DNA of 64,000 bases from Candidatus Poribacteria bacterium (GCA_965262955.1 CBDHGE010000001.1:208046-272045), one strand, 5' to 3'; shown: positions 720-15,810, counted from the first letter of the stretch. Notes: a model not told the origin generated them from the letters alone. Made by a program: numbers and translations.

Positions 720-3700
720 TTACTTGCGTATCAACATCTTCCGTGTTGCGGTGTAATCGCCTGCGGTTAAGGTATAGAAGTAAATTCCGCTTGCAACGGG
801 TTCACCGAATTCATTCCTGCCATCCCAATATACCGCACGACTCCTACCTCGATACATGCCAGCAGCTTGATGTCCTAACGACAAATAACGCACTAAACGA
901 CCGTCTATCCCATAGATATGTACCGTCACATCTGCAGGATTTGACAACTGATACGGGATCCATGTTTCTGGATTGAACGGGTTTGGATAGTTCGGCAATA
1001 GGGTTGTATCTTCTGGAACCTGCACTGCGGAGAGATGTATCGCTGGAGCTGCTTGGACAGCACCAGTCGTACTCCGAAAATACTCGTAGTCAACTACTAA
1101 GGTGCCTGTTTGTGCGGCTACACCGGCATAAATCCCCAACTGTAACGGTGGAGTCAATGGAAAATGCGTAACGCCAATCTCTATCCAAGGCTCTGCCGCA
1201 CGGGTTTTATACCATCCGGTGTAGGCATCCCCGTCTTTGCGGAGGCGGAAAAATAGTTCGGTATCTCCATGCGTCGGCGTGAACCCCGCATTACCTGTTA
1301 AACCGTCTCCATGTTCACGTCCTCTGGTTTGATACTGAATTCGTCCCTTTGCACCCGGACCTTGAGACCAAAACTTTAGGGTTACCCAGTTATTGTCCGT
1401 GGGACTTTTCACAACAAGTCCATTAACTCCTGCAGTGGTATCCCATCTGGCAAAAAAGTGGGTTTCTACATCAAATGTATCGGCATCTGTCTCCTGATAT
1501 AGGAAATGAGAGGTATCCGATGTCCACTGGTTCCGGTTGGTCTCACCCTCGATATGTAGGAAATTACTTCGAGTTTCTCCGACATCCCAATTCGCTGGTT
1601 CATTTTGCCACTGCCAATTGGGGTTTTGCAGTGCTGTTCCTTCAAAGGAATCGTCAAAGTTGTCGGATATTCGCGTCGTGGCTATCGGTGTAACAGAGGC
1701 ATCCGCACCCATCGCTCGCTTGATTTCGGATACGTCCAGAGCAACGTTCCAGATAGCGACCTCATCAATCAGACCGATGTAGTGTTCCCGATTCCCTTCA
1801 CTATTTCTTCCGATAGAGAGTGGCACGTCGTTGGTATCAATTCGACCCGTTGCCGCGGTTTCTACTTTAAGTTCACCGTTATAGTACAGTTTCATCCGAT
1901 TGCCATCGTAGGTTGCAGTTAGGTGTGTCCACTGATTTAGTGGCAGTTGCGGACTGGGTCCGTTCCCACAACGTACTTCTCGTCCGCCATCAACTGACAT
2001 AATGAAACCTGTTTTTCCGTTGGAACCACCTTGCTGATAGAGTCCATAAACCATCCAAGGTGCAGTATCCCCCGCCCACGTTTTGACGATAATACGAAGC
2101 CACTCATGTGTAAATCGTGTCGGGTGCACCCACGCCATCAATGTAATTTCATCGGTGATGTCCAGAGAGGGTGAGTCTGGCACCTCCACCCAGCTGCCGC
2201 GTTGTCCAGTTAGTTCGATGGCTTCCCCGTTCTTCCCTTGTACCCATCGTGCGTTATGAACAATTCCGTTATTGCTGTGCTTGGAGGCATCTGTGGCGGT
2301 CGTTCCGACCCCGGCGTCAAATGGAAGATAAAGCACCAAATCATCAGCGTGGATAGTTCCGATAACCGAATCGGTTTCTATGGTCTCTGTGACACGCACG
2401 TCTTCGACCTGTACTGTGATATGTCGCACAACGCGCGATGTGCCGTCGCTTGCTGTTATCGCTACCGTCGAATTACCGACGCCTCTTGGCACGATTGCTA
2501 TCTGGGTTCCCAACGTGCGGACAGTCACCACGCCTGTGTTCGTTGATTCAACCTCATAACTCAAAACATCGTTGTCGGGATCGTTGAAATAAGATGACAT
2601 GTTCAGCATCATAGTACTACCGACGGTCAAAGTTTGGGCAGGGATTGTGCCAATTGCAACTGGAGACCGGTTTGATGTGTCTTCTATCGTCAACGGAAAC
2701 GTCTGTTTTGTAATGTTTCCACTCACATCAATAACCTGAAGCGTTATCTCGCTATCAACCCCAACTGTTAAGTCGGTTGTGACGAATTCAACCGTCTGCC
2801 TTTTGCCATTCAGGGATTTGCAACTATGCAACTTTAAGCCTGAGGCAGGATCGGTAGCTGCTACCGGGACAAGCAGCTGTGCCTGACGGAGGCCATCTGC
2901 ATCGTTCAGTTCAAACTGGAGACGAAGAGTCCGCGGGTTTGAGGCATTCGAGGCACGCATAGCAATCGTCGCGTTTTCATTGAAAAAGATTGGATCGTTA
3001 TTGAAGAAACGATGGGCATCCAACCATTCGGTGGCACAGTGCGACAAACGTTGCTGGGTGCCGTATCCCATCAGATAGGCATTGTCCCGGAAATCGTGCT
3101 CTAATCCAAAGACGTGTCCGAGTTCATGAGCAGTAATACTGGGGTTAATGCATACACCAGAGGCTGGGATGACTGCTAACCCGCCAAAATCTCGCCGCCA
3201 ATTCTCGTTATCAGACGAATTCCAACCGCCACCGCCTATCCCACAGGTATTTTCGTTATTAATAAATTCGCTACTCACATCTATTGCGACTAAAAAGACG
3301 TTTTTTGACGTATCAAACTGCTCAGCGATCTCATTCAGTACTTTGTTGTAGGTATCCTGATGATAGTATGTATCCGTGAACTTTCCGGTAACATGGTGGA
3401 CTTGTGCGTAACCGGTAGGCTCGGTTTCAAAGGCAAAGGTTTTTCGGTTGCCAATGCCTTGCATCTGTTCTGCGTAGAAGTACTGTGTCCATCTTATCAA
3501 TGTGTCTAATTCCTTCTCGATCCCTTGTCGGTGTGAACGATCGCTTGGGCGGAAGTAGACTAAGCGAACCATTTCTCGTTCATACTGTTGGATGGCTGTA
3601 TCATCTTCGGTCTGCGATATGGGTGTATTCTGTTTGGGCTTTTGGCTGTCTGTTTCCCGTTGCAAACGTTGCGTGGCGATGGGTGTAACATCCCACAAGA

Positions 3701-5603
3701 GGACGGTGCCATCGGGACTCCCAGTAGCGAGTGTGGTACCATCTGGACTAAAGGCGAGACTTTCAATCCAGTGCGCATGTCCATAGAGGACTTTGAATCG
3801 TTCCCCTGTGGCAACATCCCAAAAGAGTATCTCGGCTCCATTTCCGCCGGTTACGAGCATAGTGCCATCGGGACTGAAACTAACACCAGAATAATAGCAG
3901 GATCTTGAGATTGGAAGTGCGGCTTTGCGTTGCCCAGTCGCGACATCCCACAGCACGACCTTGGCATCATTATATCGCTCCCCCGGAGTCTCCACAGCGA
4001 GCGTTTTGCCATCCGGACTAAAAGTGATCCCAACACCACCTTTGATATGCCCACCGAGGGTATGGAGGAGTCGTCCGGTACCAACATCCCACACCCGAAC
4101 GGTGTCGTCATTATAACCACCACTTGCAAGTATGCTACCATTGGGACTGAAACTGACGCTCTGGACATGGGCAGTATGTCCTCTGAGGGTGGCTTTATGT
4201 GCGCCAGACCTTGCGTCCCACAAGCGTACAGTGGAATCCCCACCGCCACCGGCAATTGTCCTGCCGTCCGGAGAATAGGCAACGCACCAGACCCACTCCG
4301 TATGTCCAGTAAGTGTTACCTTTTGCCGCCCTGTGCGAACATCCCACAGATGGACTACTTTTTGAGTTGCAACCGCCAGTGTAAGTCCATCAGGAGAATA
4401 CGCGAGCGTGTCGCCCCAATTAGACCTCGTGGGCGGTGAGGGTTTAAGTTGTTCTGTAGCAATATCCCACAACTGGACACCGCTGTCAGCTCCAATTGCC
4501 AACGTGCCACCATCGGGAGAATATACAACCCTAACGACTTCTTTCGTATAACCTTTAATCGTAGATGTAATTTGACCTGTGCGAACATCCCAGAAGTGTA
4601 TCGTTCCACTCCGACTTACCCCAGCGAGTGTACGACCATCCCGTTGAAACATGAGGGAGCCAACACTGAAGGCATACCCGGCAGTGGCTTGGATTTCCCC
4701 CGCTGTAGCACTTTCAAATGTAGCTTTGACTTGTCCTGTGGTAGCATCCCAGACTCGAATTTTTCCATCCCAATGGCTGCTTACGAATATGGTACCATCT
4801 GGACTGAAGCTGGTGCTCTCGCCCCACCAATGCTCTGTAAGTGTGGATCTGAATCGCCCTGTGCCAGCATCCCATAGTATTATTTTTCCATCCCAACCTC
4901 CAGATGCGAGGGTTCTGCCATCCGGACTAAAGCTGACGCTACCGATCATTTTGGTATGCCCCGTTAGGTTCGCTATGAGTCTACCAGATCCTACATCCCA
5001 CAACCGCACAGTGGTGTCTCCACTCCCACTTGCGAGGGTCCTACCATCCGGACTGAACGCAATACCGGTGATGTCACTTGTGTGCCCTTGCAAAGTTCTG
5101 AGGATCTTACCGGTGCGGGTGTCCCACAACCTTATAGCGTTGTCAGCATACCCAGCACAAGCGAGTATACGACCATCGGGCGAATACCGAATGCTCTGAA
5201 TATCAGCATAACGGTTTTCAATAGGCGGTACACTAAGTATGTCTCTGGACTGCCACGTGGCAGTATCCCAGAGATGCACGTCGTGAACACTCCCACTTGC
5301 GAGTGTTCGACCATCGGGAGAATAAGCAACACTCCGAAATCTACGCGGTTTAGACGGATCTGGGGTGAGCCATTCAAGTACTGCTTCCGTTTGTGCATCG
5401 TATACCCAAACCCCAACGGAACTGGCTACTGCAAGTTGCGTCTCATCTGGAGAATATGTCAGTTCTCTTATGATACCTTTTCCGAAGCGAGCAATTGCAC
5501 CTTCAGGTAAATTCCATTGCGTGTAACTTTGTGCGAAGCTGTTTGGCACAACAGCAAGTGCTATCAACACGACAGCCAAAATCGAAAATAGTGTGATTTT
5601 CAT
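720..5603 (-). CDS. Giant secreted multidomain protein of 1627 aa. It has a signal peptide, about 14 WD40 repeats (two beta-propellers), a matrixin-like zinc metalloprotease (HELGHVFGLEH), a cadherin-like Ig domain, LamG/ConA-like lectin domains, and a T9SS type-A C-terminal sorting domain.
   Basis: The N-terminal signal peptide is MKITLFSILAVVLIALAVVPNSFAQ. WD40 motifs such as LASGSGDTTVRLWD recur. The metzincin motif HExxHxxGxxH is encoded around 3085-3125. The C-terminus, NYPNPFNPETWIPYQL...GIYFYTLTAGDYTATRKMLIRK, matches the Por-secretion tail. Confidence 0.85.
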   Translation of the reverse strand: MKITLFSILAVVLIALAVVPNSFAQSYTQWNLPEGAIARFGKGIIRELTYSPDETQLAVASSVGVWVYDAQTEAVLEWLTPDPSKPRRFRSVAYSPDGRTLASGSVHDVHLWDTATWQSRDILSVPPIENRYADIQSIRYSPDGRILACAGYADNAIRLWDTRTGKILRTLQGHTSDITGIAFSPDGRTLASGSGDTTVRLWDVGSGRLIANLTGHTKMIGSVSFSPDGRTLASGGWDGKIILWDAGTGRFRSTLTEHWWGESTSFSPDGTIFVSSHWDGKIRVWDATTGQVKATFESATAGEIQATAGYAFSVGSLMFQRDGRTLAGVSRSGTIHFWDVRTGQITSTIKGYTKEVVRVVYSPDGGTLAIGADSGVQLWDIATEQLKPSPPTRSNWGDTLAYSPDGLTLAVATQKVVHLWDVRTGRQKVTLTGHTEWVWCVAYSPDGRTIAGGGGDSTVRLWDARSGAHKATLRGHTAHVQSVSFSPNGSILASGGYNDDTVRVWDVGTGRLLHTLGGHIKGGVGITFSPDGKTLAVETPGERYNDAKVVLWDVATGQRKAALPISRSCYYSGVSFSPDGTMLVTGGNGAEILFWDVATGERFKVLYGHAHWIESLAFSPDGTTLATGSPDGTVLLWDVTPIATQRLQRETDSQKPKQNTPISQTEDDTAIQQYEREMVRLVYFRPSDRSHRQGIEKELDTLIRWTQYFYAEQMQGIGNRKTFAFETEPTGYAQVHHVTGKFTDTYYHQDTYNKVLNEIAEQFDTSKNVFLVAIDVSSEFINNENTCGIGGGGWNSSDNENWRRDFGGLAVIPASGVCINPSITAHELGHVFGLEHDFRDNAYLMGYGTQQRLSHCATEWLDAHRFFNNDPIFFNENATIAMRASNASNPRTLRLQFELNDADGLRQAQLLVPVAATDPASGLKLHSCKSLNGKRQTVEFVTTDLTVGVDSEITLQVIDVSGNITKQTFPLTIEDTSNRSPVAIGTIPAQTLTVGSTMMLNMSSYFNDPDNDVLSYEVESTNTGVVTVRTLGTQIAIVPRGVGNSTVAITASDGTSRVVRHITVQVEDVRVTETIETDSVIGTIHADDLVLYLPFDAGVGTTATDASKHSNNGIVHNARWVQGKNGEAIELTGQRGSWVEVPDSPSLDITDEITLMAWVHPTRFTHEWLRIIVKTWAGDTAPWMVYGLYQQGGSNGKTGFIMSVDGGREVRCGNGPSPQLPLNQWTHLTATYDGNRMKLYYNGELKVETAATGRIDTNDVPLSIGRNSEGNREHYIGLIDEVAIWNVALDVSEIKRAMGADASVTPIATTRISDNFDDSFEGTALQNPNWQWQNEPANWDVGETRSNFLHIEGETNRNQWTSDTSHFLYQETDADTFDVETHFFARWDTTAGVNGLVVKSPTDNNWVTLKFWSQGPGAKGRIQYQTRGREHGDGLTGNAGFTPTHGDTELFFRLRKDGDAYTGWYKTRAAEPWIEIGVTHFPLTPPLQLGIYAGVAAQTGTLVVDYEYFRSTTGAVQAAPAIHLSAVQVPEDTTLLPNYPNPFNPETWIPYQLSNPADVTVHIYGIDGRLVRYLSLGHQAAGMYRGRSRAVYWDGRNEFGEPVASGIYFYTLTAGDYTATRKMLIRK

Positions 5604-5640
5604 TGGGAATCTCCTTCTTTAGCACGTGTCCCGTCAAAAT

Positions 5641-6972
5641 CTACTTTAGTGCATCTAAGATCTTCTCTGCAAAAACCGTTTTAGGCATTACCCCAACCAT
5701 TTTTCCGACCACTTTGCCATCTTGGAAGATAATATACGTTGGAATCCCATTGACTTTATATTCTCCGGGCGTCCGCGGGTTTGCATCAATATCCAATCGT
5801 CCAACGATGAAAGTATTACGGTGTTCCAATGCGACTGTCTCAACGACTGGCATCATTTGTCGGCAGAAGGGACACCAATCGGCAGCAAATTCAAGCACAA
5901 CGGGTGCCTTAGCATCCAGCACCTCGGTTTTGAATGTAGCATCGGTAATCTCAACAATTTTCCCATCAGCATTAATCAGTACTGGATCCACATCTTCTTC
6001 GGGAACTACATCAACGGGTTCGGGAACTACATCATCAACAATCTCAATCGGTTCATCAGCAACAGGTTCGGGAACTACATCATCAACGACTTCAATCGGA
6101 TCATCAGCAATCGGTTCAGGGACCACATCGTCAACGACTTCAATCGGATCATCAGCAATCGGTTCAGGGTCAATACCGTCATCAACAGGGACGGGATCGG
6201 TGTTGACCGGTTCAGGAGCAATATCTTTCGGATCATCGACTGTAATATCTCCAGTATCCTCTCCTATGATGCTGTAAACGTACCGCGTAGCAGTGGCTCG
6301 CATAAAGAGGACCAAGAGTCTACCGTCCCAAGTATATGTCCCCGTCAAAGGCGTAGGATTGCCATCAACAAACCAGTGAATCGTTCCTGTACTCTGGTCA
6401 AAAGGTGCAACAAGTTTATAGGTGCCCGAGCTATATTGAACTGGACCTTGGGCTTCGTCTTGGAATTCCCGTGTAAACGTTGAAATCGTGAGTCGCAGGA
6501 CGCCGGTTTCTTCAACGGGGTCTCCATGAACCTGCTTGGAAACGAGTTCATAGGTGCCGCTGAGTACTTGCGCAATCCGGTATGGTTTTGAAAAAATGAT
6601 AACTGATGCCGATTTGTGGACCTCTTCCTCGCCGCCATCCTGCACGGAAACGGAAACGGCTACCGTCGTTGGAGGCACAATTTCCTCAGGTGGAAGTTCT
6701 GGAGCAGTCCATTGAACTTCAGGTCCTGTGTCAACAATCAAAGTGCCTTTGGATACATCCCATACATAGGTTAAAGTATCATCTTCAGGATCAAATGCCC
6801 TCGCTTTAAATCTGACGGTTTCACCGTATGGGACTTCACCGGGGACAGTGAAACTGGTTATTTTAGGTGGGTCATTGGTGAGTTCATCATATTGGTCACA
6901 ACCGCTTAAGATGGCGATTTGGAGAGCTAACACAATGACCAAGCTGATCTGAGTTAGTTTAGAAAAATGCAC
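5641..6972 (-). CDS. Lipoprotein with an N-terminal Ig/FN3-like domain, an acidic 16-aa tandem-repeat linker and a C-terminal thioredoxin domain (WCPFC). It ends 37 bp upstream of the WD40-metzincin gene, so the two are probably co-transcribed.
   Basis: The signal and lipobox are ILSGC. Repeats of PEPIADDPIEVVDDVV occur about 3.5 times. The thioredoxin CxxC motif is WCPFCRQMMPV. Confidence 0.8.
   Translation of the reverse strand: MHFSKLTQISLVIVLALQIAILSGCDQYDELTNDPPKITSFTVPGEVPYGETVRFKARAFDPEDDTLTYVWDVSKGTLIVDTGPEVQWTAPELPPEEIVPPTTVAVSVSVQDGGEEEVHKSASVIIFSKPYRIAQVLSGTYELVSKQVHGDPVEETGVLRLTISTFTREFQDEAQGPVQYSSGTYKLVAPFDQSTGTIHWFVDGNPTPLTGTYTWDGRLLVLFMRATATRYVYSIIGEDTGDITVDDPKDIAPEPVNTDPVPVDDGIDPEPIADDPIEVVDDVVPEPIADDPIEVVDDVVPEPVADEPIEIVDDVVPEPVDVVPEEDVDPVLINADGKIVEITDATFKTEVLDAKAPVVLEFAADWCPFCRQMMPVVETVALEHRNTFIVGRLDIDANPRTPGEYKVNGIPTYIIFQDGKVVGKMVGVMPKTVFAEKILDALK
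5995..6180. repeat. Tandem repeat of 48 bp, about 3.5 near-identical copies, encoding the acidic PEPIADDPIEVVDDVV linker of the Trx lipoprotein.
   Basis: Repeated units of ggaactacatcatcaacgacttcaatcggatcatcagcaatcggttcagg are directly visible. Confidence 0.7.
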
Positions 6973-7014
6973 AAGATATCTCCTTGTAGACCACTACAAA
7001 TCTGTTGTCTGAAC

Positions 7015-7055
7015 CAAGATTTTCAGGATTTTTATAATTTTCAGGATTATTGACA
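7015..7055 (-). promoter_or_regulatory. Conserved ATCCTGAAAAT direct repeats (18-bp period) plus TTCAGACAA, 35-80 bp upstream of the Trx-lipoprotein start.
   Basis: The minus-strand reading is AATCCTGAAAATtataaaaATCCTGAAAATcttggTTCAGACAAcag. It is shared with 625-660 and 9820-9850. Confidence 0.35.
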
Positions 7056-7070
7056 CTTTCCGGTTGAAAT

Positions 7071-7091
7071 GGGTAGGTACAAGACCTACCC
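7071..7091 (-). terminator. Second copy of the conserved GGGTAGGT-acaag-ACCTACCC hairpin, downstream of the WD40-dockerin gene.
   Basis: Same structure and flanks as 682-702. Confidence 0.35.
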
Positions 7092-7108
7092 CTACAGTAG
7101 AAAAGATA

Positions 7109-9781
7109 TTATTTGCGTATCAGCATTTTACGCGTCGCAGTGAAATCGCCTGCGGTTAAGGTATAGAAATACACGCCGCTTGCGACGGATTCACCTACTG
7201 CGTTTTTGCCATCCCAATATGCCGCACGGCTACGGGATTGGTAGATGCCTACTGCTTTATGCCCTAATGACAACGTTCTGACCAAACTCCCACCTACCGC
7301 ATAGATACGCAGGGTCACATCTGCGGGAGTTGCCAACTGATACGGAATCCACGTCTCTGGATTGAACGGGTTCGGGTAGTTTGCTAACAACGCTGTCTCT
7401 TTTGGAGTTAATGTCAACAGCAGCTGCTCAAGGAAGCGGATACCGCGTTGAGAGATTGCATCGGTAAGATTAAGTTGCTGTGCTTGTGTTAACCACTGCT
7501 GCACGGTCTCTGGAGAGAGTCGAGAGAGATTCGCTACAGCAGCTGGTGCACTGGCAGCCGTTTCTCCGAATGCCGCAGCCACGGAAACAAGGTCCCGAAT
7601 GTCAACTGTGCCATCACCATTGATGTCAGCAGGCGTTTCGCCTGTTTCGCCAAATGCCGCTGCTACGGAGACGAGATCGCGTATGTCAACCGTTCCATCA
7701 CCCGTGACATCGGCTGCGAGGCGAGGCGGTTCGGGTTCGACTTCTGGTTCCGGTTCGGGTTCCGGTTCTGGAGCGAGGTCCCACAGCAGCACGGTGGAAT
7801 CTTCACTACCACTCGCCAATGTCCTACCATCTGGACTGAACGAGACACTCTCAACATACGAGGTATGCCCAGTGAACTGGGATTGCAGCGTCCCAGTAGC
7901 AACATCCCACAGCCGGACCGTGCCGTCAACACTTCCACTGGCAAGGGTAGCTCCATCTGGACTGAACGACACACTCTCAACTTCATCTGTATGCCCAGTG
8001 AGTTCGGATTGCAGCGTCCCTGTCCCTATATTCCACAAACGCACCGTGGTGTCCCAACCCCCACTCGCAAGCATCTGACTACTCGGATTGAACGATACAC
8101 TCCGGACAGGCAAAGTATGTCCCATGAGTTCGGATTTCAGTGTTTCTGTCCCAACGTCCCATATACGCACCGTGGTGTCCCGACCCCCACTCGCAAGCAT
8201 TGAACCATCGGGACTGAACAATACAGTTTTGACCCAATGCGTATGTCCTGTGAGTTCGGCTTTCAACGTCCCAGTTCCTACATCCCACAAACGTACTGTT
8301 CCGTCACTACTACCACTGGCAAGGGTAGCTCCATTTGGACTGAACGATACACTATGAACACCTTCCGTATGCCCCTCGAGCGTAGTTTTCAGCGCACCAC
8401 TCCCGACATCCCATAAACGAATGGTCCGGTCTGCACTTCCACTGGCAAGGGTAGTTCCATTCGGACTGAACGATACACTCTCGACCCAGAGCGTATGTCC
8501 TGTGAGTATAGTGCTGACCGCCCCTGTGCCAACACTCCATAAACGCACAGTATTGTCATAACTCCCGCTCGCAAGTGAGGTGCCTTTCGGACCGAATGAT
8601 ACACTCGCGACACCACCTATATGCCCGGTGAATGTGGTTTTGAGGTCCCCCGTCTCAACATCCCACCAACGTACCGTATTGTCATAACTCCAACTCGCAA
8701 GCGTTTGACCATCCGGGCTGAACGACACATTCAAGACCTCGCGCGTATGTTCGGTGAACGTGGTTTTGAGGTCCCCCGTCCCAACGTTCCACAAACGCAC
8801 CGTGGTGTCACTACTACCACTCGCTAACGTCATACTATCTGGACTGAACGATACACTCTCGATCAAGGACGTATGCCCCATAAGCTCAAATTTTAACGTG
8901 CCAGTCGCAACATTCCATAAACGTACTGATCCCTCTGAACTCCCACTAGCGAGGGTCGTGCCATCTGGACTGAACGACACACTAAAGACATGATCGGTAT
9001 GCCCTGTGAGTTCGGATTTCAGTGTTCCAGTCCCTACATCCCATAAATGCACTAGTCCGCGTAAACTCCCACTAGCGAGGGTCGTGCCATCTGGACTGAA
9101 CGACACACTCTTGACCCCAATCGCACCCCCTGTGAGTTCAGATTTCAGCGTCCCTGTCCCTACATCCCATAAATGCACCGAGCCACTACCACCCATACAG
9201 GCAAGCGTCGTGCCATCTGGACTGAATGACACACTCTTGATACCACCCCAATGCTTTTCGAGCTCGGATTTTAGCGTCCCTGTCCCTACATCCCATAAAC
9301 GCACCGTAGGGTCGGATAGCCCGCTACTCGCAAGCGTTTGACCATCTGGACTGAACGATACACTCGAAATCTGATGCGTATGTCCAGTAAGCGTCGCTTT
9401 CGGCACAGCCGTCATAACGTCCCACAAACGCACCGTCGTGTCCTCATTCCCACTCGCTAACGTCATGCCATCCGGACTAAACGACACACTCTTGACCGAG
9501 TTTGTATGCTCTGTGAGGAGTGCGAGTTCTTGGTATGTCTCGGTATCATAAAGCCATATACCGATGCTACTTCCTACCGCAAGCAGTGAACCGTCTGAAG
9601 AATATGTTACCGCATTTATACTACCTTTACCGAATCGCGCTTTGGCTCCTTCGGGTAAACCCAATTGCGTATACTCCTGATATTGTCCGAAGGTACTTGG
9701 TAGATACACTGTTGAAAATAAAATGAACGCCAAAATTATTGAAAATAATCTCGTTTTCATCGGAAGTTTACCTCTTTTCAA
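7109..9781 (-). CDS. Secreted WD40 beta-propeller protein of 890 aa, with about 14 repeats, a Pro-Glu linker, duplicated dockerin type-I repeats and a T9SS type-A C-terminal sorting domain.
   Basis: A signal peptide is present and LASGS.D.TVRLWDV repeats recur. The linker is PEPEPEPEPEVEPEPP. The dockerin repeats read DVTGDGTVDIRDLV twice. The C-terminus is NYPNPFNPETWIPYQL...GVYFYTLTAGDFTATRKMLIRK. The likely true start is M8, with AGAGG 9 nt upstream, at about 9760. Confidence 0.85.
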   Translation of the reverse strand: MKRGKLPMKTRLFSIILAFILFSTVYLPSTFGQYQEYTQLGLPEGAKARFGKGSINAVTYSSDGSLLAVGSSIGIWLYDTETYQELALLTEHTNSVKSVSFSPDGMTLASGNEDTTVRLWDVMTAVPKATLTGHTHQISSVSFSPDGQTLASSGLSDPTVRLWDVGTGTLKSELEKHWGGIKSVSFSPDGTTLACMGGSGSVHLWDVGTGTLKSELTGGAIGVKSVSFSPDGTTLASGSLRGLVHLWDVGTGTLKSELTGHTDHVFSVSFSPDGTTLASGSSEGSVRLWNVATGTLKFELMGHTSLIESVSFSPDSMTLASGSSDTTVRLWNVGTGDLKTTFTEHTREVLNVSFSPDGQTLASWSYDNTVRWWDVETGDLKTTFTGHIGGVASVSFGPKGTSLASGSYDNTVRLWSVGTGAVSTILTGHTLWVESVSFSPNGTTLASGSADRTIRLWDVGSGALKTTLEGHTEGVHSVSFSPNGATLASGSSDGTVRLWDVGTGTLKAELTGHTHWVKTVLFSPDGSMLASGGRDTTVRIWDVGTETLKSELMGHTLPVRSVSFNPSSQMLASGGWDTTVRLWNIGTGTLQSELTGHTDEVESVSFSPDGATLASGSVDGTVRLWDVATGTLQSQFTGHTSYVESVSFSPDGRTLASGSEDSTVLLWDLAPEPEPEPEPEVEPEPPRLAADVTGDGTVDIRDLVSVAAAFGETGETPADINGDGTVDIRDLVSVAAAFGETAASAPAAVANLSRLSPETVQQWLTQAQQLNLTDAISQRGIRFLEQLLLTLTPKETALLANYPNPFNPETWIPYQLATPADVTLRIYAVGGSLVRTLSLGHKAVGIYQSRSRAAYWDGKNAVGESVASGVYFYTLTAGDFTATRKMLIRK

Positions 9782-9886: not shown

Positions 9887-12388
9887 TTAGGGTTCAGGCG
9901 ACTCTTTAGAATCACCCTCTAATTCCTCGATCCAACGCATAATCGTTTCGTAACTTTCAGTATCGTTTCGCTTCTGCAATTGATCGGCAAGTTGATTACC
10001 CGTCTCAACCAGTAACTCTCGCAATTCTGGTGTATAGGGTTCCGACTTTAACGCCAGTCGGTACTTCTCCATCGCATTCTTGGGCTGTCTGCGGTTCAGC
10101 AAACATCGGGCGAGGGCACACTGCACGCGAGCCAATTTCTCCGCAGTCGGGTCGGGCGTGTCTGGTATAGCATCAACGGTTGAAGCAGCCTCGTCAGTAC
10201 CGGGTTCTGACGAGGCTGCCGCTCTCGCTTTACTCAACGCAACATCAAGTTGCGATTCAAGCGAGAGCAGATTTTGATATGCAACAGTATTCCTCGGATG
10301 TTTAGAGAGGACGTTATCAAAAGTCGCCAAAGCTTTCAAATGATCATTCTGGACGAGATAGAGATAACCAATCATGTTGAGCATATCTACAGTTTTTTCA
10401 GATGCCGGAATCGCCTCAAAGACAACGACCGCTTCTGCATATCTCTTCTGATTCATCAAGGCATTTCCACGCCGGATTTGGAGGTTCAGGAGTTCTGTTT
10501 TTGCGTTTTTATGATTCGGATCTTGTGCTAAAATTCGCTCTAATTCCTCTCTTGCCTGATCATATTTGCCGAGACGTTGGTATACCTGCGATAAGGTCAG
10601 ACAGAGATTAAGGTCGGTTGGAAAGAGGTCTAATGCTTTCTGAAGCTGCACGGCTGCATTGCTATAATCTCTTCTATCTCTCAAGCCTTGCGCATATTGC
10701 AGATAGGCAGCGATGAGGTTATGCTGTGCCTGTTTGTCGGTGGGGAGTACTGTGTAAACTTTATGAAACGCCGAGATCGCTGCGGGATAATCTCGCACTT
10801 TGAGATATAATTCTCCAAGCAAACTCGCTATATCCGTATCATCTGGATGCAGTTTCTGTAATTCAAGATACGTGGCAATTGCACTGGTGGAACGTCCCGA
10901 TTGTCGATGTGCGTTTGCTTTTTGCCAAAGCACATCAATCAGGTTTGTTTTGGCGAGTTGATAGGTAGGTTGTAATCTTAAAGCGTTGCGATAGGCGCGA
11001 ATCGACGCATCCCATTCGCCGTTATTCCTGAGTGCCACGCCATGGTTATTATAGGCGTGTACGAGGTTCTTCTCCGTCACTTTATCGCCGGGTTCAATTT
11101 CTAACGCCTTTTGGTAATATGTAATCGCTGTAGAAAACTGAGAGACGTGGGCGTACCCGTCCGCCATGTGTCGATAGGTAGTAGCGTTCTGTGGGTCGAG
11201 ATGGATGGCTTTTTCAAAGTATGCGGTCGCCTCGTCAAAAGCCCTCATCTTTACAGCGTCAAATGCTTTTTGGCGAAAGAGCTGGTGGAGGTTTCGTTTT
11301 GCGGTTTTGTGATGCGGTGAGCGTTCAAGGGCTTTCTCAAACGCCTCTATCGCTTTGTTCAGATCGCCTTCTCGGTAATAGAGCGTGCCGAGGTAATTAT
11401 AGGAGTCGGCACTCTCATGGAAAGAGCGATGCCCTTGCTGGGTTTCCATTCTTTGTTCAACGATACGAATAGCTTGTTGTGACTGTCCAGTCTTTTGGTA
11501 GGCCTGAATCAGTTTCACCCTTGCGGGTTCAAAATTGGAATCAACGCCGAGACAGTTCTGAAAATTGGCGATTGCCTGTGTCATGTCGCCTTTGTCAAAG
11601 CAGACTGCACCAAGCAGGTAGTGCGGGCGGGCATGTCTTGGATTCGTTTGAATTTCCTTTTTTAGAAGTTCGATAGCAACGGCGTGCTGTGATGTATGGA
11701 GCGGTGTATTGTAAAGTTTCAATAATGTATTGATATCGCGAGCAGTTGGATACTGGGCGGTTGCCGTGGTGTGACAGACATCAAGGTCGTCTGGGCTGTG
11801 TCCCCACAAACCGATCGCATGCCCAAGTTCATGCAGGCACACTGTCCGCATCTCTTCTTGGGTCAGTTCACCGACGGTTCCATCTCCCTCTAACACAAAG
11901 AGAACCTCCACTGTGAAATCAATCGCTGTCCCTGAAACTTGTCCGGTGTTGGTACGCTGTCCTTGGACATCAGTACCAGAGACAGTGGATGTGCCTTGTT
12001 CAAGTCGCGTTAATTCGGCACTACCGAGTCGTGTATCAAGAAAACTCAGGCGACCACTGTAGGTTGGGGTAATGCGGATGTCTGCCTGCTCCAAGACTTC
12101 AGTCTCTTGAAAACGGACTTTGCCATTGGAAGCAGTTTCCCAAGTGCGCATGGCGTATCGTATTTCAGGGAGATAGGGGAGTGCTTTGAGGGTAGGTGAA
12201 ATGTGGACATGAATCGGCATCTGCGTAAAGCGCGTGATTCTGCCACCCGAAAACAGCGTAACCTGTTCAAAATAATCTGTCGAAGAGGTTGTCTCCGTCG
12301 CATTCTCAACAGGGTCCTGTGCTGTTACCTGTCCTATGAAACCGACAACTGTCAGTGTAAAGACGAAAAGGGTATAGTATTTTTTCAT
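9887..12388 (-). CDS. Secreted matrixin-like zinc metalloprotease (HELGHAIGLWGHS) fused to a long array of TPR repeats, 833 aa.
   Basis: A signal peptide is present. The HExxHxxGxxH motif sits about 200 aa in. More than 12 TPR-like 34-aa repeats follow, of the type AYxxLGxxYxxxGxxxxAIxxxxxAL. Confidence 0.8.
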   Translation of the reverse strand: MKKYYTLFVFTLTVVGFIGQVTAQDPVENATETTSSTDYFEQVTLFSGGRITRFTQMPIHVHISPTLKALPYLPEIRYAMRTWETASNGKVRFQETEVLEQADIRITPTYSGRLSFLDTRLGSAELTRLEQGTSTVSGTDVQGQRTNTGQVSGTAIDFTVEVLFVLEGDGTVGELTQEEMRTVCLHELGHAIGLWGHSPDDLDVCHTTATAQYPTARDINTLLKLYNTPLHTSQHAVAIELLKKEIQTNPRHARPHYLLGAVCFDKGDMTQAIANFQNCLGVDSNFEPARVKLIQAYQKTGQSQQAIRIVEQRMETQQGHRSFHESADSYNYLGTLYYREGDLNKAIEAFEKALERSPHHKTAKRNLHQLFRQKAFDAVKMRAFDEATAYFEKAIHLDPQNATTYRHMADGYAHVSQFSTAITYYQKALEIEPGDKVTEKNLVHAYNNHGVALRNNGEWDASIRAYRNALRLQPTYQLAKTNLIDVLWQKANAHRQSGRSTSAIATYLELQKLHPDDTDIASLLGELYLKVRDYPAAISAFHKVYTVLPTDKQAQHNLIAAYLQYAQGLRDRRDYSNAAVQLQKALDLFPTDLNLCLTLSQVYQRLGKYDQAREELERILAQDPNHKNAKTELLNLQIRRGNALMNQKRYAEAVVVFEAIPASEKTVDMLNMIGYLYLVQNDHLKALATFDNVLSKHPRNTVAYQNLLSLESQLDVALSKARAAASSEPGTDEAASTVDAIPDTPDPTAEKLARVQCALARCLLNRRQPKNAMEKYRLALKSEPYTPELRELLVETGNQLADQLQKRNDTESYETIMRWIEELEGDSKESPEP

Positions 12389-12705
12389 TTTTGCCTATAG
12401 TTAGAAACACATATTCGCACAGTCCGAGATTTTAGACAATCCTCGAGGGTGAGAGAACTCCCTCGTAAAATTTCTGTAACGAAAACCGGTGCGAATCTAT
12501 AATTCATTCAACTCATTATTATATATACAGAGCAAAAAGCGTGCCAGATGTAAATCGAGCGACGGAACGTTCAAAACGGTTATAGGCGGTAATGAAAAAA
12601 GAAATATACTTATAAAATAAGAAGGAAAATGAATACGGTAACACTATAAGAAAGAATTTTTCCATAGTATACCGAGAAAACACGAGAAAAAAAAAGAATG
12701 GAATA

Positions 12706-12753
12706 GTGCAAAAATTGTATAGTGCAAAAATTGTATAGTGCAAAAATTGTCCA
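12706..12753. repeat. Three perfect tandem copies of a 16-bp unit (ATAGTGCAAAAATTGT) in a 575-bp AT-rich region upstream of the metzincin-TPR gene.
   Basis: atagtgcaaaaattgt occurs three times, followed by a purine-rich A-tract region. Confidence 0.8.
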
Positions 12754-12964
12754 ATTATACAATTAATGTCTGTATTCAATTATAATACAACACATATATA
12801 GATTACGGAAGTTTAATTTACAATTCAGGGAAACTAACAGAATTGGCTTTTGGCTACAACTTAGGCAGGAAATAATCAGTCAACGCTTTGGATTCGTGGC
12901 TGAGATTTTGGAAGGTTCAAACAGTGAAAGGCAGGCGTTCTCCGGTTCAGAAATGTTTATCGGT

Positions 12965-13417
12965 TTAAATACCAAACGTTTTTTCCAGATTGTCTCTGAG
13001 TCGAGTTATAATTATCGCCTCTAATTGTTCAAGAGACTGTGTACTATCCACATCCACCAGTGCATCCACAAGTTGTAAGAGCTCTTCCTGCTCGGCTACG
13101 TCGCAGGCTCTAAGTGTGCCCACAATTTCACTGATCTGCGGTAAGACATAAGCTTTGAAATCGGGTGGTGCGTATTGGAGTTCTTCCATAATTATGTCCA
13201 TCTCCTCAACGGCATTTTTTAACTGCGATTCCAACGCCTCGAGTGCTTTTTGTTGCCTATTGATGGAATTGACTTGCAGGTTAACTGGCACTACGGTGTT
13301 GTGGACAGCAGCCTCCCTTGCTTCCAGAACCCTACTTTCCAAATCAACTAAGGCTCTGAATTTCTCTACGATTATGTCTGCCAGTTCCGTTGTCTGTCCA
13401 GTTTCTTTCTCAGTCAT
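12965..13417 (-). CDS. Small acidic, probably all-helical protein of about 150 aa, of unknown family. It is paralog A of 15286..15717.
   Basis: It shares about 50% identity with the protein at 15286..15717. The most conserved block is AYVLPQ[IM]SEI[VI]GTL[RK]ACD..LE[QE]LEAIITRL[RK]DNLE. The likely start is the ATG (M7) at 13417, with GGAGA 11 nt upstream. The track start is a GTG at 13435. Confidence 0.65.
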   Translation of the reverse strand: MTEKETGQTTELADIIVEKFRALVDLESRVLEAREAAVHNTVVPVNLQVNSINRQQKALEALESQLKNAVEEMDIIMEELQYAPPDFKAYVLPQISEIVGTLRACDVAEQEELLQLVDALVDVDSTQSLEQLEAIIITRLRDNLEKTFGI

Positions 13418-13631
13418 TCGTTCACTTTTCTCCACGGATTTAATTTGGCTTATAAGTCAATTATCGCTTATAGTCATATTAAGGCGTTACTACGTTTTTA
13501 CAATCATTTCAATATATCACATTTTATACGTTCTTTTCAAGATGCAACAATACCTTACTTAAACTTAAATTATAATAAAAGATAGATATGAATTTCTAAG
13601 TATCTTCCATAAAAGGCTAATATCTATACTT

Positions 13632-13647
13632 AAGCAAAAATCATGCC
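13632..13647 (-). promoter_or_regulatory. Near-consensus sigma-54 (-24/-12) promoter, TGGCATGATTTTTGCT, directed at small-protein paralog A.
   Basis: It matches TGGCAC-N5-TTGCW with exact GG-N10-GC spacing. It lies about 185 nt upstream of the ATG and is divergent from the sensorless sigma-54 activator gene. Confidence 0.5.
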
Positions 13648-13661
13648 ACTTTTGAAGTGGC
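13643..13661. promoter_or_regulatory. Perfect palindrome TGCCACTT-ttg-AAGTGGCA overlapping the -24 element. Its right arm supplies the TGGCA of a weaker plus-strand GG-N10-GC element (TGGCAaacgcgacGCA) pointing toward the activator gene.
   Basis: The 8-bp perfect inverted arms are directly visible. It could be an operator or back-to-back -24 elements. Confidence 0.4.
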
Positions 13662-13685
13662 AAACGCGACGCATACTTTTTGGAC

Positions 13686-13775
13686 GTCTGAACTTCTTCG
13701 GGACCACGATTGTTCCCTCAAACAAGACGGACATCCAGATGCAAATTATTGGAAAACTGAAGGTCCTAATTATCT
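13686..13775 (+). repeat. Intergenic repeat element, copy A, of about 90 bp. It is about 80% identical to 56836-56930.
   Basis: It shares gaactt[cg]ttcgggac...gttccc...catccagatg[ct]aaattattgga[at]aactgaa with copy B. Confidence 0.6.
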
Positions 13776-14058
13776 CTTGCACACAATTTCGCTATAGAAT
13801 ATAATACGAGGCACGGGAGATTTCTTTTGGTTTTATCCAAAATTGTTATCTTTAAATGATATTTCCTTCCGCTTGACTTATTTTTTTCATTATGCTATCT
13901 TGACCACTTTAGGACTTTACGACTACAATAATTAGTCACAAATATAATTATCCTAACATGGTTATAACGATTTAATTGCTTTGTTTCACTCAAGTTGCTT
14001 TAACAAGTAGATACACCACGTATGCCAACTACTCTAACAGAGTGGGACCTACTACCTC

Positions 14059-15219
14059 ATGAAAGACATGAAAAATAAGTCATTACCTATTACTTTGACA
14101 TCGGCACCGATGCAGGAAATTTATCACCAAGTAGAGCAAGTTGCGCCAACAGAAACGACTGTTCTTATTACCGGTGACACGGGTGTTGGTAAAGAGATCA
14201 TCGCCCATAAAATACACAAGGCAAGCTTGCGAAATGCCAAACTTTTCAAAGCCATCAACTGCAGTGCATTCCCTGACAATGGACTTTTGTTGAGTGAATT
14301 GTTTGGTCATGAGAAAGGAGCATTTACCGGGGCAGCACATCAGCGAAAAGGTGTATTTGAACAGGTAGACACTGGAACCCTACTTCTCGATGAAGTAAGC
14401 GAAATGAGCGCTGAAGTGCAGGCGATGTTTCTTCGCGTGTTAGAAACCCAAGAATTCACAAGAGTTGGTGGAAACAGGACGATTAAAGCGGATGTTCGTG
14501 TTGTCGCTGCTACAAACAAATGCCTCGAAACAGCAATTAAAAACAGTCAATTCAGAGAGGATCTTTATTACCGCCTCAACCACTTCCCCATTTACATCCC
14601 GTCTCTACGAGAGCACCGTGAAGATATTCCGCCTTTAGTTGATGCCTTTATCTCCGAATTCAATACCAAACATGAGAAAAGTGTTACGAACATCACACCT
14701 GAGGCAAGGAATTTTCTCAAATATGCTGCCTGGCCCGGTAATATCCGCCAACTCAGAAACACTGTTGAAAGGGCAATCATTCTAACCAAAACGAATGAAT
14801 TAACGTTCAGCGATTTGCCTGCTGACATTGCAATCGCGCCACAGATAGTAATAGCGACGCGTCCGTCGGACGCCAACACGTCCACCGCTATTCCAACAGA
14901 AGTTCGTCAAATATTGACACAAATTTCAGTGACGGAGTTCATCTTGATTTTTGGTGGAATACCGAATGCTGTTTGGCGAGTGCTTCCTGAAAAGACGCAG
15001 CAGTCTGTTATCCGTGAGGCATCATTTCATTTATCAACGCTTTTAGGCGGACATCAGGACACAATTCGGATCAGTGGTATGGATCGAAATCAAATCTTAG
15101 GGAAAGTTGCCCAGCACCGCATAAAAGAACATGGCTCTCTTGCGCGAGCCGCAAAGTCGTTAGGTGTAGATCGCCGAACACTTAAAACGTACACAAAAGC
15201 AGATGATGTGAGTGAATGA
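14059..15219 (+). CDS. Sigma-54-dependent transcriptional activator (bacterial enhancer-binding protein) consisting only of the AAA+ sigma-54 interaction domain and a C-terminal Fis-type HTH. It has no N-terminal sensory or receiver domain, making it a PspF/HrpS-class activator.
   Basis: Walker A is GDTGVGKE, the sigma-54 contact motif is GAFTGA and Walker B is LLLDEVSEM. The C-terminal HTH is HGSLARAAKSLGVDRRTLKTY. The AAA+ domain begins about 20 aa from the N-terminus. Confidence 0.9.
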   Translation: MKDMKNKSLPITLTSAPMQEIYHQVEQVAPTETTVLITGDTGVGKEIIAHKIHKASLRNAKLFKAINCSAFPDNGLLLSELFGHEKGAFTGAAHQRKGVFEQVDTGTLLLDEVSEMSAEVQAMFLRVLETQEFTRVGGNRTIKADVRVVAATNKCLETAIKNSQFREDLYYRLNHFPIYIPSLREHREDIPPLVDAFISEFNTKHEKSVTNITPEARNFLKYAAWPGNIRQLRNTVERAIILTKTNELTFSDLPADIAIAPQIVIATRPSDANTSTAIPTEVRQILTQISVTEFILIFGGIPNAVWRVLPEKTQQSVIREASFHLSTLLGGHQDTIRISGMDRNQILGKVAQHRIKEHGSLARAAKSLGVDRRTLKTYTKADDVSE

Positions 15220-15285
15220 AGCGAAATGGACGGACAGGGAGTCCGCCCACTGGTGAATCAAAATACAAGAAGAATGACTGACCGC

Positions 15286-15717
15286 CTACTCAAGACTAAA
15301 CGAGCGTTCAAGATTGTCCTTGAGTCGTGTTATAATTGCCTCTTCCAATTGCTCGGAGGACTCGGCGTTCTCGTCAGTCAGTGCCGTCACAAGTTGGGTA
15401 AGTTCACTGCGATCAGCTGCATCGCAGGCTTTAAGTGTTCCAATAATTTCACTCATCTGCGGTAAGACGTAAGCTCTGAAACAAGGCGTTGCGAGCGTGA
15501 GTTCGTCCGTAATCCCATCCAACTCTTCAACACTCTCCTTTAATTCCGATTCCAATGCCGCCAAGCCATCAGGAGTGCCGCCATTGGCAGAGCGTTGGAG
15601 TGCGGTGTCCCGCGTCTCCAGAACTTTGTCCTCCAAGGCAACTAAGTCTCTAACTTTCGCCACAATTGCATCCGCGCGTTCTTGCGCCTCTCTAAGTTCC
15701 TGCTCAGTCATTTGCAT
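15286..15717 (-). CDS. Small acidic helical protein, paralog B of 12965..13417, convergent with the activator gene.
   Basis: Paralogy is as described for paralog A. The strong RBS GGGAGG lies 7 nt before the ATG at 15717. The longer track ORF starts further upstream in the Fe-ADH 3' gap. Confidence 0.65.
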   Translation of the reverse strand: MQMTEQELREAQERADAIVAKVRDLVALEDKVLETRDTALQRSANGGTPDGLAALESELKESVEELDGITDELTLATPCFRAYVLPQMSEIIGTLKACDAADRSELTQLVTALTDENAESSEQLEEAIITRLKDNLERSFSLE

Positions 15718-15774
15718 TTGTGTGCCTCCCAAAGTTAAACCATAGAATGTTGACCATGCCACCAATTGCTACAG

Positions 15775-15803
15775 ATTATACAAACCTTTCCAATTTTTGT
15801 CAA
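15775..15803 (-). promoter_or_regulatory. Perfect consensus sigma-70 promoter, TTGACA-17 bp-TATAAT, driving paralog B.
   Basis: The minus strand reads cTTGACAaaaattggaaaggtttgTATAATctg, about 55 nt upstream of the RBS. Confidence 0.55.
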
Positions 15804-15810
15804 GTCCCCT

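Follow-up and report, generated by a model that had tools for sequence, protein, structure and literature searches.

The locus described here raises the question of how a sigma-54 activator that carries no sensor of its own is kept in check, and what it switches on. Only a handful of such activators under trans control have been studied well, chiefly PspF and HrpR/S, and each has taught a distinct lesson on AAA+ gating. Neither has a cis regulatory domain; control comes in trans, from PspA and HrpV respectively, and HrpG relieves HrpV by binding it (PMC3105312). The window, a 64-kb stretch of DNA from a Candidatus Poribacteria bacterium, contains a gene for an enhancer-binding protein (EBP) on the plus strand (14059..15219, 386 aa, the longest possible ORF), flanked by two minus-strand genes for small proteins, paralog A (12965..13417, 150 aa) and paralog B (15286..15717, 143 aa). 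Every feature named in the first-pass annotation is present, its coordinates agreeing to within one base.

The Sigma54_activat domain (PF00158) covers residues 14–178 of the EBP (E 7.6e-65) and is followed by AAA_lid_14 at residues 184–258 (E 1.5e-25). Walker A (GDTGVGKE), Walker B (LLLDE) and the GAFTGA loop (window position 14317) can be read directly off the sequence, giving the protein the hallmarks of a bacterial sigma-54 activator. The AAA+ domain begins at residue 14, which leaves no space for a sensor upstream of it. The protein consists of 13 residues, the AAA+ domain and a C-terminal HTH, with nothing longer available in the ORF, and thus has the layout of the sensorless PspF/HrpR/HrpS class, as the first-pass annotation had recognized. 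In the alignment, all intact orthologues likewise begin directly with the AAA+ domain and lack a sensor; they are 362–421 aa long as called, the shortest being truncated by a contig end. Walker A, Walker B and a GAFTGA-type loop are kept in 16 orthologues, with the variants GTFTGA, GSFTGA, GAYTGA and GAFTDA. By the NCBIfam equivalog models the protein is not a PspF orthologue (TIGR02974, 240 bits versus a cut-off of 443.6; PRK11608, 196 versus 529). No rpoN gene is present within the 64-kb window.

To this domain layout our analysis adds a strongly conserved, predicted helical region of about 100 aa between the lid and the C-terminal end (residues ~283–386), which is not a plain linker. It ends in a Fis-type HTH, matched weakly by HTH_8 in Pfam (residues 358–375, E 0.018) and preceded by an extra conserved subdomain (~283–330). 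The HTH segment GSLxxAAKSLGIDRRTLKxY is conserved; its structure model superposes only weakly on the DNA-binding domains of EBPs and Fis. The structure model of residues 255–386 is poor (pLDDT 60), and this part gave no significant fold or sequence match; searches with the C-terminal domain returned 10 fragments from proteins and one 1.4-kb contig from metagenomes.

The two small proteins are 52% identical to each other (BLASTP E 7e-46) and acidic (pI 4.3 for A and 4.2 for B), in agreement with the earlier description of two flanking acidic paralogues about 50% identical. B is predicted to be all-helical. The A gene is divergent from the EBP gene across a 641-bp spacer, and the B gene is convergent with it across 66 bp. 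The first reading had placed both outside PspA and any recognized family, and this held in every search. Neither protein has a match in Pfam, NCBIfam, PADLOC or PHROGs, and the family profile found nothing below E 0.24 among all PDB sequences. A profile search of 1.84 billion protein representatives recovered only the family itself (27 representatives), with no distant known relatives and no fusion proteins. A and B are not PspA/IM30/Vipp1 proteins, with no similarity to PF04012 (PspA_IM30) or to solved PspA/Vipp1 chains; hhalign of the family against a provisional E. coli PspA sequence gave a probability of 0.1%. As for HrpV and HrpG, neither A nor B matches any Pfam or NCBIfam family at a meaningful E-value. 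A flagellar chaperone had been named beforehand as the identity that would speak against a regulatory role; A and B show no family-level match to FliS or FliT and no specific fold similarity that exceeds the background of generic helical bundles. The fold of B offers no functional clue, since its model is of low confidence (pLDDT 65) and resembles generic helical bundles only. A and B are therefore an orphan family without a Pfam, NCBIfam or PDB relative. The family comprises 191 and 177 cluster representatives (E≤1e-3) with 45–89% amino-acid identity between species, and every source-named match and every GTDB locus belongs to Poribacteria.

Across 19 non-redundant Poribacteria loci (196.6 kb), the conserved core consists of B and the EBP, accompanied by a repeat array and a sigma-54 promoter facing cargo genes, both of which are conserved in all loci with enough flanking sequence. 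B adjoins the EBP in the window, in all 15 GTDB species loci and in the metagenome loci with an intact EBP, the last having been fetched through B and counted where the EBP was intact. B orthologues elsewhere share 54–83% identity, and every main-clade locus has B and the EBP in convergent orientation. The two family members that diverge most, P0216 and P0232 (E 2.7e-5 against the profile of the family), also adjoin an EBP; at the P0232 locus the gene order differs and the two genes are co-directional. B matches the AAA+ protein in degree of conservation: identity to the window proteins is 69% for B versus 55% for the EBP in one locus (L004), and 72% versus 57% in another (L009).

Adjacency of B and the EBP thus bears out two members of the conserved triad that the first-pass annotation had envisaged, but A, the third, is present in only part of the phylum and is absent from at least five species. 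In the tree, A and B form sister clades, with longer branches in A. A is a lineage-restricted, faster-evolving duplicate of B.

The strict sigma-54 pattern (TGGYAY-N5-TTGCW, with a −24 TGGCAC, a −12 TTGCW and 5-nt spacing) occurs twice in the 64-kb window versus 0.25 expected, a count of two being reached in 3 of 100 shuffles. One match, P_A (TGGCATGATTTTTGCT; 13633..13648, minus strand), is the predicted promoter of A, 215 nt upstream of it. A sigma-54 promoter had been proposed here, one base away; the element is kept upstream of A in 7 of the 8 non-redundant A-containing loci, and an insertion sequence sits at that place in L016. The other match, P2 (TGGCACGCTTTTTGCT; 12531..12546, minus strand), is a predicted second sigma-54 promoter located just downstream of A and 143 nt upstream of the first cargo gene. 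Both elements match the consensus, lie upstream of a gene and are conserved in orthologous loci, as expected for genuine sigma-54 promoters, which they probably are. Over the 19 loci the strict pattern occurs 24 times versus about 0.8 expected from the window shuffle rate. Twenty-two of these matches lie between the EBP and exported-protein genes in the orientation of the cargo; L023 accounts for the remaining two, of which one is a further copy downstream and the other lies on the strand of the EBP.

B and the EBP gene are preceded by sigma-70-type promoters. That of B (TTGACA-17-TATAAT; 15775..15803, minus strand) matches the consensus at 12/12 positions, as first annotated, and 9 of the 15 loci examined have an 11–12/12 match between −86 and −137 relative to the start of B, a tenth locus having 10/12. 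The probable EBP promoter (TTGACT-17-TATCTT; 13873..13901, plus strand) matches at 9/12 positions with a TG extension and sits inside a sequence block conserved over 6–7 species. Rfam gave no match in 12300–16000.

A putative enhancer (UAS) array is located at 12703..12752 on the minus strand. It consists of three perfect tandem 16-bp repeats (ATACAATTTTTGCACT; TRF, 3.0 copies, 100% identity) with the core CAATTTTTG, and each unit contains the near-palindrome TACAA-N3-TTGCA. The pattern RCAATTTTTGY occurs four times in the window versus 0.38 expected, three of them inside the array, whose PWM scores of 16.8–24.1 bits compare with a 99.99th percentile of 8.8. In 14 further non-redundant loci a homologous array precedes a sigma-54 promoter by 147–310 bp; these arrays are built of 15–16-bp units, two to six in number and usually three. 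Among the 19 loci, 51 of 57 enhancer cores fall in arrays upstream of sigma-54 promoters. Outgroup arrays persist with a changed spacing (42 bp in L023) or a changed core (CACTTTTTGCAC in L022). Being repeated, partly palindromic, roughly 100–300 bp upstream of a sigma-54 promoter and near the EBP gene, the array has the properties of a UAS and would serve as one. A head-to-tail arrangement of 15–16-bp units is unusual for EBP sites. We also considered the repeats as degenerate sigma-54 promoters, an idea rejected because the −24 GG element is missing.

These counts bear on the objection that chance could account for the motif matches and that the small ORFs lack function. Beyond the general caveat that a consensus match does not prove function, nothing speaks for it, whereas promoters and arrays greatly exceed the expected numbers, their positions are conserved, and the small proteins are found in 191 and 177 cluster representatives (E≤1e-3) at 45–89% identity across species. 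We regard this objection as effectively refuted.

The genes downstream of P2 encode exported proteins. The first (9887..12388, minus strand) specifies a secreted TPR protein of 833 aa that carries a metzincin-type motif, HELGHAIGLWGH, in its N-terminal part, and its L025 orthologue has a weak Peptidase_M10 match. Possible further cargo genes follow on the same strand with short intergenic gaps (720..9781), each product having an N-terminal signal sequence: a WD40 protein (7109..9781, minus strand), a thioredoxin lipoprotein (5641..6972, minus strand) and a WD40 and LamG_3 protein (720..5603, minus strand). A signal or lipoprotein leader is present in the first cargo ORF of all 13 loci checked. 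The type of cargo varies over loci and includes TPR/metzincin-like, WD40, LamG and PA14 proteins and a thioredoxin lipoprotein, among others. The repeat enhancer and the second sigma-54 promoter for secreted and lipoprotein genes, which together point to the output of the system, had been overlooked in the first-pass annotation.

The best explanation for this arrangement appears to be a Poribacteria-specific sigma-54 regulatory cassette. In this cassette, a constitutively expressed, sensorless EBP very probably activates one or more adjacent divergent sigma-54 promoters, likely via the repeat array, and the output would be variable exported proteins. The EBP would be made constitutively and, having no sensor of its own, would be recruited by the tandem 15–16-bp array, its likely binding target. 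It would then switch on cargo such as PA14/LamG lipoproteins, WD40 and TPR "eukaryote-like" repeat proteins, thioredoxin lipoproteins and others.

How P_A would be served is a separate matter. The A–EBP pair had been described as arranged exactly like pspA and pspF; the divergent orientation stands, but the spacer between the two genes (13418–14058) contains no enhancer-like site above 8 bits in the PWM scan, and the array lies beyond A. It is the only array at the locus, about 0.9 kb downstream of P_A. One may therefore ask whether P2 alone belongs to this EBP, with P_A served by an EBP encoded elsewhere and A outside any feedback loop. The empty spacer would fit such a division, and the conserved blocks upstream of P_A are explained by the sigma-70 promoter and 5′ UTR of the EBP gene. 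Enhancers of sigma-54 activators such as NtrC act at kilobase distance and from either side, however, and the array is merely ~0.9 kb away. P_A is moreover kept beside this EBP in 7 of 8 A-containing species, and A is a paralogue of the EBP-linked B. We consider a separate activator for P_A quite improbable and propose that P_A, lacking a separate array, would be reached by looping from the one ~0.9 kb away.

Gene linkage suggests that B is a trans-acting control subunit of the EBP, most likely an anti-activator of the PspA/HrpV kind, a proposal for which we judge the balance to be even. A trans-acting subunit is the most likely role since the EBP is sensorless, B is co-inherited wherever the EBP is intact, and the sigma-70 promoter of B is much the stronger. 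B would hold the EBP inactive until some signal removes it, as PspA does with PspF and HrpV with HrpS. A, a duplicate of B behind its own sigma-54 promoter, would be a member of the regulon that feeds back on the switch. In the negative form of this feedback, A would bind the EBP too; in the positive form, A would titrate B as HrpG titrates HrpV. We slightly favor negative feedback because A keeps the most conserved motifs of the family.

The same B–EBP linkage also applies to a positive role, since the sign of regulation cannot be read from it. A and B could be positive partners, acting in trans as a sensor or co-activator that the EBP needs to assemble or to engage sigma-54. Driving A from a sigma-54 promoter would then give positive autoregulation, and Cys79 and Cys98, kept in the sampled members of the B clade, could make B a redox sensor. 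These cysteines are absent from the deep branches P0216 and P0232, however, so redox sensing through them is a weak proposal. EBP AAA+ domains in isolation usually show constitutive activity, which also argues against a required co-activator. Finally, the sensorless precedents PspF and HrpR/S are under negative trans control (PMC3105312). A positive role is therefore unlikely in our estimate.

A different possibility is that A and B do not regulate the EBP at all and are cytoplasmic helpers that travel with the cassette, for example chaperones or adaptors for exported cargo, with a FliT-like dual role as a variant. At least one lineage keeps an intact B/A chimera after the loss of the EBP, both promoters and the array, and the divergent paralogue P0212 is encoded with no EBP nearby. 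Since these stand without an adjacent EBP, the family may have an EBP-independent role. A pure helper function seems to us somewhat unlikely, if the least so of the alternatives considered here, and we keep trans-acting control by B as the leading reading.

Taken as a whole, the scheme would make A and B the founding members of a new regulator family that acts in trans, is confined to one phylum and has no kinship with PspA or HrpV, in which B sets the off-state and A closes a feedback or partner-switch loop, acting on exported eukaryote-like repeat proteins in sponge symbionts through an EBP recruited by an unusual head-to-tail 16-bp array. We put this complete picture forward tentatively, as a possibility. 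If true, it would open a new test case for EBP gating and add a third solution beside PspA and HrpV, namely a partner family related to neither that naturally comes as one constitutive and one inducible paralogue. It would also provide sponge microbiology with a first regulatory handle on exported TPR/WD40 "eukaryote-like" proteins, which are abundant in Poribacteria and have been proposed as mediators of host interaction (PMC3909097). Our literature search found no paper linking Poribacteria to sigma-54 control. The system is compact, comprising a single EBP with one or two small proteins plus a 48-bp array and a sigma-54 promoter that matches the consensus. Because its elements look compatible with E. 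coli sigma-54, heterologous testing is possible despite the uncultivated hosts.

Among known systems, TraM (anti-TraR) and FliT (anti-FlhDC and export chaperone) are small, acidic, all-helical anti-activators, and FliT ties regulation to cargo export. A and B share this general character and could similarly neutralize an activator by direct binding, but the targets of TraM and FliT belong to other activator classes (LuxR-type and FlhDC), and there is no sequence or specific fold match to A/B. In NifL–NifA and other anti-activator pairs, an EBP is restrained by a separately encoded protein, as proposed here. NifA, however, carries a GAF domain of its own, and its partner NifL is a large flavoprotein of PAS/kinase-like type; A and B, by contrast, are helical proteins of ~150 aa without a recognizable cofactor or sensor domain.

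The HrpR/HrpS–HrpV–HrpG system, which controls type III secretion in Pseudomonas syringae, also uses sensorless EBPs inhibited by a small protein, HrpV, and its output concerns host-directed proteins, as may be the case here. A partner switch between B and A could follow the pattern of HrpG antagonizing HrpV (PMC3105312). HrpV and HrpG are not paralogues, in contrast to A and B at 52% identity, and no sequence relationship of the Hrp proteins to A/B was detected in Pfam, NCBIfam or PDB sequences. The duplicated component is the EBP in Hrp and the partner here. Since the predicted sigma-54 promoters sit directly on the cargo, a HrpL-type sigma cascade has no counterpart in this locus.

Compared with PspF–PspA, the partner is non-homologous to PspA, and the conserved partner gene (B) is sigma-70-driven and convergent rather than the divergent sigma-54 gene. 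The enhancer consists of two to six direct 15–16-bp repeats beyond A instead of lying in the divergent spacer, the output would be exported repeat proteins rather than membrane-stress effectors, and the EBP carries an extra conserved helical subdomain before its HTH. Several features are shared with Psp. In both cases the EBP consists of AAA+ and HTH only, its gene has its own sigma-70-type promoter, and a small helical protein, here a candidate trans-regulator, is encoded alongside. One small-protein gene, A in this locus, is divergent from the EBP gene and predicted to be sigma-54-dependent, so that the presumed regulator would itself belong to the regulon, as in Psp.

The enhancer-binding protein (EBP) gene at 14059..15219 (+) is called in the ORF listing as 386 aa, in which Pfam recognizes Sigma54_activat (residues 14–178), AAA_lid_14 (184–258) and, weakly, HTH_8 (358–375). 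The ORF cannot be extended upstream, so the protein is truly sensorless at its N-terminus, in agreement with the first-pass annotation of an AAA+/HTH activator devoid of a sensory domain. Many NCBIfam EBP equivalogs match it, via the AAA+ core only and all below cut-off; pspF, for example, scores 240 bits against a cut-off of 443. Alignment of the orthologues shows that the Walker A, Walker B and GAFTGA-type loops are kept, and that a C-terminal region of ~100 residues is strongly conserved (SVTEFILIFGGIPNAVWR...REASFHL...GSLxxAAKSLGIDRRTLKxY). This region is predicted to be helical, a unit of roughly four helices preceding a three-helix HTH, although with low confidence (pLDDT 60), and the model returned no significant matches in the PDB. 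Natural variants of the GAFTGA loop (GAFTDA, GTFTGA, GSFTGA and GAYTGA) occur among the orthologues of L004, L009, L001, L020 and L005 (L numbers denote the compared Poribacteria loci); these proteins are otherwise intact, and the repeat array and promoter described below are kept.

A strict sigma-54 promoter pattern occurs exactly twice in the 64-kb window, where 0.25 matches are expected. The first, P_A (TGGCATGATTTTTGCT, 13633–13648, minus strand), lies ahead of the small-protein gene A, as had been proposed. The second, P2 (TGGCACGCTTTTTGCT, 12531–12546, minus strand), was overlooked in the first-pass annotation; it follows A and is separated by 143 nt from the next gene downstream. Three perfect tandem 16-bp repeats (unit ATACAATTTTTGCACT, 12703–12752) precede P2 by about 160 bp. 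Their core, RCAATTTTTGY, is found four times in the window (0.38 expected), three of them within the array. With a PWM built from related loci, the array units score 16.8–24.1 bits, compared with a 99.99th percentile of 8.8 bits for the window. Each unit contains a near-palindrome, TACAA-N3-TTGCA, which in L005 becomes a perfect GTACAA-TTT-TTGTAC; such units look like the site of a dimeric HTH protein. No rpoN gene was found within the 64-kb window. A further sequence, TGGCACCGGTTTTGGA at 56435–56450 (−), fits the sigma-54 pattern with one mismatch (−12 GC), 57 nt upstream of the ORF at 54759–56378.

The arrangement was compared across 19 non-redundant loci (196.6 kb in total). A strict sigma-54 promoter, divergent from EBP, is present wherever the flank is long enough: loci in which A is missing have one, and loci in which A is present have two, P_A preceding A and P2 following it. 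The exception is L016, whose P_A position is taken up by an insertion sequence. Of 24 strict matches, 22 fall between EBP and the downstream cargo genes, in cargo orientation, and the remaining two are both in the outgroup L023. The putative enhancer core is similarly concentrated, with 51 of 57 occurrences in arrays of 2–6 units, spaced at 15–17 bp and placed 147–310 bp upstream of the cargo promoter. The array is kept in L023 with 42-bp spacing and also in the outgroup L022, where its core is changed and four CACTTTTTGCACCTGA units are present. Conservation thus strongly supports a cis architecture running from the EBP gene through the array and a sigma-54 promoter to genes for predicted exported proteins. 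The natural reading is that EBP would bind the repeats and activate the sigma-54 promoter(s). The two matches in L023, at 7843–7858 (−) and 11433–11448 (+), are a sigma-54-like promoter (TGGCACAAAATTTGCT) ahead of the EBP gene itself and a duplicate of the cargo promoter, identical in sequence, 3 kb farther downstream.

The spacer between A and EBP contains no enhancer-like site above background in the PWM scan; P_A therefore has no proximal array, the nearest being ~0.9 kb downstream of it. Most of the conservation of this spacer is due to a cross-species block holding the weaker, sigma-70-like promoter of the EBP gene (TTGACT-17-TATCTT, 13873–13901). An 8-bp inverted repeat (TGCCACTT/AAGTGGCA, 13644–13662, minus strand), flagged as terminator-like, overlaps the −24 element of P_A and is not conserved among the orthologous promoters. 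The 5′ UTR of A (13560–13630, minus strand) carries a block, AGCCTTTTATGGAAGATACTTAGAAATTCATATC, downstream of P_A that L001, L007 and L021 conserve in part and that has no match in Rfam; the leader varies from ~55 to 390 nt, depending on the species.

In all 13 loci checked, L023 included, the first ORF past the cargo promoter carries a leader of the signal or lipoprotein type. Its commonest product is a lipoprotein (MRKYxWIAV...C) bearing PA14 or LamG_3 domains; in the window it is a TPR protein with an HExxHxxGxxH motif. Further cargo comprises WD40 propellers, a thioredoxin lipoprotein, a caspase-like protein and an FGE-sulfatase-type protein. The TPR protein (9887–12388, minus strand) carries N-terminally HELGHAIGLWGH, a metzincin-type zinc-protease motif, and its L025 orthologue matches Peptidase_M10 weakly. 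Near-matches to the sigma-54 pattern recurring every 126 bp at 8948–9215 (−), in the WD40 gene at 7109–9781, reflect DNA-level WD40 repeats and were rejected as promoters. TPR and WD40 proteins that carry export signals belong to the "eukaryote-like proteins" that are highly abundant in Poribacteria and have been proposed as mediators of host interaction (PMC3909097). A literature search turned up no account of sigma-54 regulation in this phylum. Among the other neighbors, a 649-aa protein (16974–18923, minus strand) has both a queuine/archaeosine tRNA-ribosyltransferase (TGT) domain and DUF5591, with a 7-base overlap between its gene and the stop of an Fe-alcohol dehydrogenase gene. L001 and L003 have a methylase/MutH/PDDEXK cluster in the vicinity, on the upstream side of the Fe-alcohol dehydrogenase gene.

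The small proteins A (12965..13417, minus strand, pI 4.3) and B (15286..15717, minus strand, pI 4.2) are indeed acidic paralogues of no recognized family: they are 52% identical (E 7e-46) and have no match in Pfam, NCBIfam, PADLOC or PHROGs. B is modeled as five helices (5–43, 52–76, 78–97, 100–114 and 121–140; pLDDT 65), and a PDB sequence search with the family profile found no relative. At E ≤ 1e-3 there are 191 cluster representatives for B and 177 for A, and all named hits are "Candidatus Poribacteria" proteins annotated as hypothetical. The contig that carries the copies of the window is 4.03 Mb long. A 37-member profile searched against 1.84 billion representatives retrieved only 27 proteins, all ≤163 aa and none fused to another domain, and among 185,579 species genomes scanned the family occurred in 15 loci, all from Poribacteria. 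It is therefore an orphan family restricted to this phylum.

In all main-clade loci where EBP is intact, B is the convergent neighbor of this sensorless protein's gene (362–421 aa, lengths as called), and its degree of conservation equals that of the AAA+ protein. The two most divergent family members also adjoin a sensorless EBP: P0216 (L023) is convergent with it, and P0232 (L022; profile E-value 2.7e-5) lies upstream of it in the same direction, so the pairing survives a change in gene order. A is present only in the window, L001, L007, L012, L014, L016, L020 and L021. Of the triad expected to be conserved, the B–EBP pair thus holds, but A does not. In a neighbor-joining tree A and B are sister clades within the family, with longer branches in A and single-copy lineages placed deeper; together with its patchy occurrence, this makes A a later duplicate, missing from some lineages.

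Several loci cut the other way. In L025 and L026, a chimeric gene (P0117, similar to P0186; L025:5001–5447, L026:1479–1925) with the N-half of B and the C-half of A sits between the usual neighbors, where B, EBP and A would be; EBP, sigma-54 promoter and repeat array are all missing. The crossover falls within the conserved YVLPQMSEIVGTLKACDAAE core, and it looks as if EBP was deleted by recombination between the directly repeated paralogues. The chimeric ORF is intact, which indicates either a recent loss of EBP or an EBP-independent role of the protein. In L018 (6547–8868), EBP is interrupted by a 572-aa ATPase-like ORF, leaving its C-terminal 138 aa; B (141 aa) is undamaged, and neither a sigma-54 promoter nor an array can be detected. 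P0212 (L027:2273–2734, L028:526–987), a divergent paralogue away from any EBP, has a TGGCACAAAACTTGC element (TGGCACAAAACTTGCG) ~270 nt upstream. DUF1326, DUF2283, three PhyH genes and a pectate lyase come after P0212, which could belong to the regulon as a distant member.

The TTGACA-17-TATAAT promoter of B (15775–15803, minus strand) matches the sigma-70 consensus at 12 of 12 positions and merits its earlier description as textbook. The promoter is conserved: a match of 11–12/12 lies 86–137 nt upstream of the B start in nine of 15 loci examined, and a tenth has 10/12. An enhancer-like site, TTCCAATTTTTGTCA (15788–15802, plus strand; 8.1 bits, just under the 99.99th percentile of 8.8), overlaps its −35 hexamer, with similar overlaps in L016 and L012. 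On this post hoc observation EBP might repress B, although the likeness may stem from TTGACA and the A-rich spacer.

We propose that B, and possibly A, control EBP in trans, because EBP has no sensor of its own and because one paralogue is sigma-54-driven at the window locus. For B, the role is further suggested by its co-inheritance, in two gene orders and with at least equal conservation, wherever EBP is intact; its promoter, much stronger than that of EBP, would fit a stoichiometric inhibitor. A is an accessory paralogue within the putative regulon, and could provide negative feedback or titrate B. The observation of the first-pass annotation is confirmed and its interpretation partly supported, with the center moved to the B–EBP pair and, along with it, the repeat enhancer, one or more sigma-54 promoters and the genes for exported cargo.

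The earlier suggestion of Psp- or Hrp-like logic built from non-homologous parts is consistent with these results. B shows an hhalign probability of 0.1% to a manually entered E. coli PspA sequence, and the pspF model remains below cut-off. By analogy, the cassette would work like the trans-controlled activators of the PspF/HrpS class, with a logic matching that of PspA/PspF and HrpV(/HrpG)/HrpS (PMC3105312); its parts are unrelated, and it belongs to neither the Psp nor the Hrp family.
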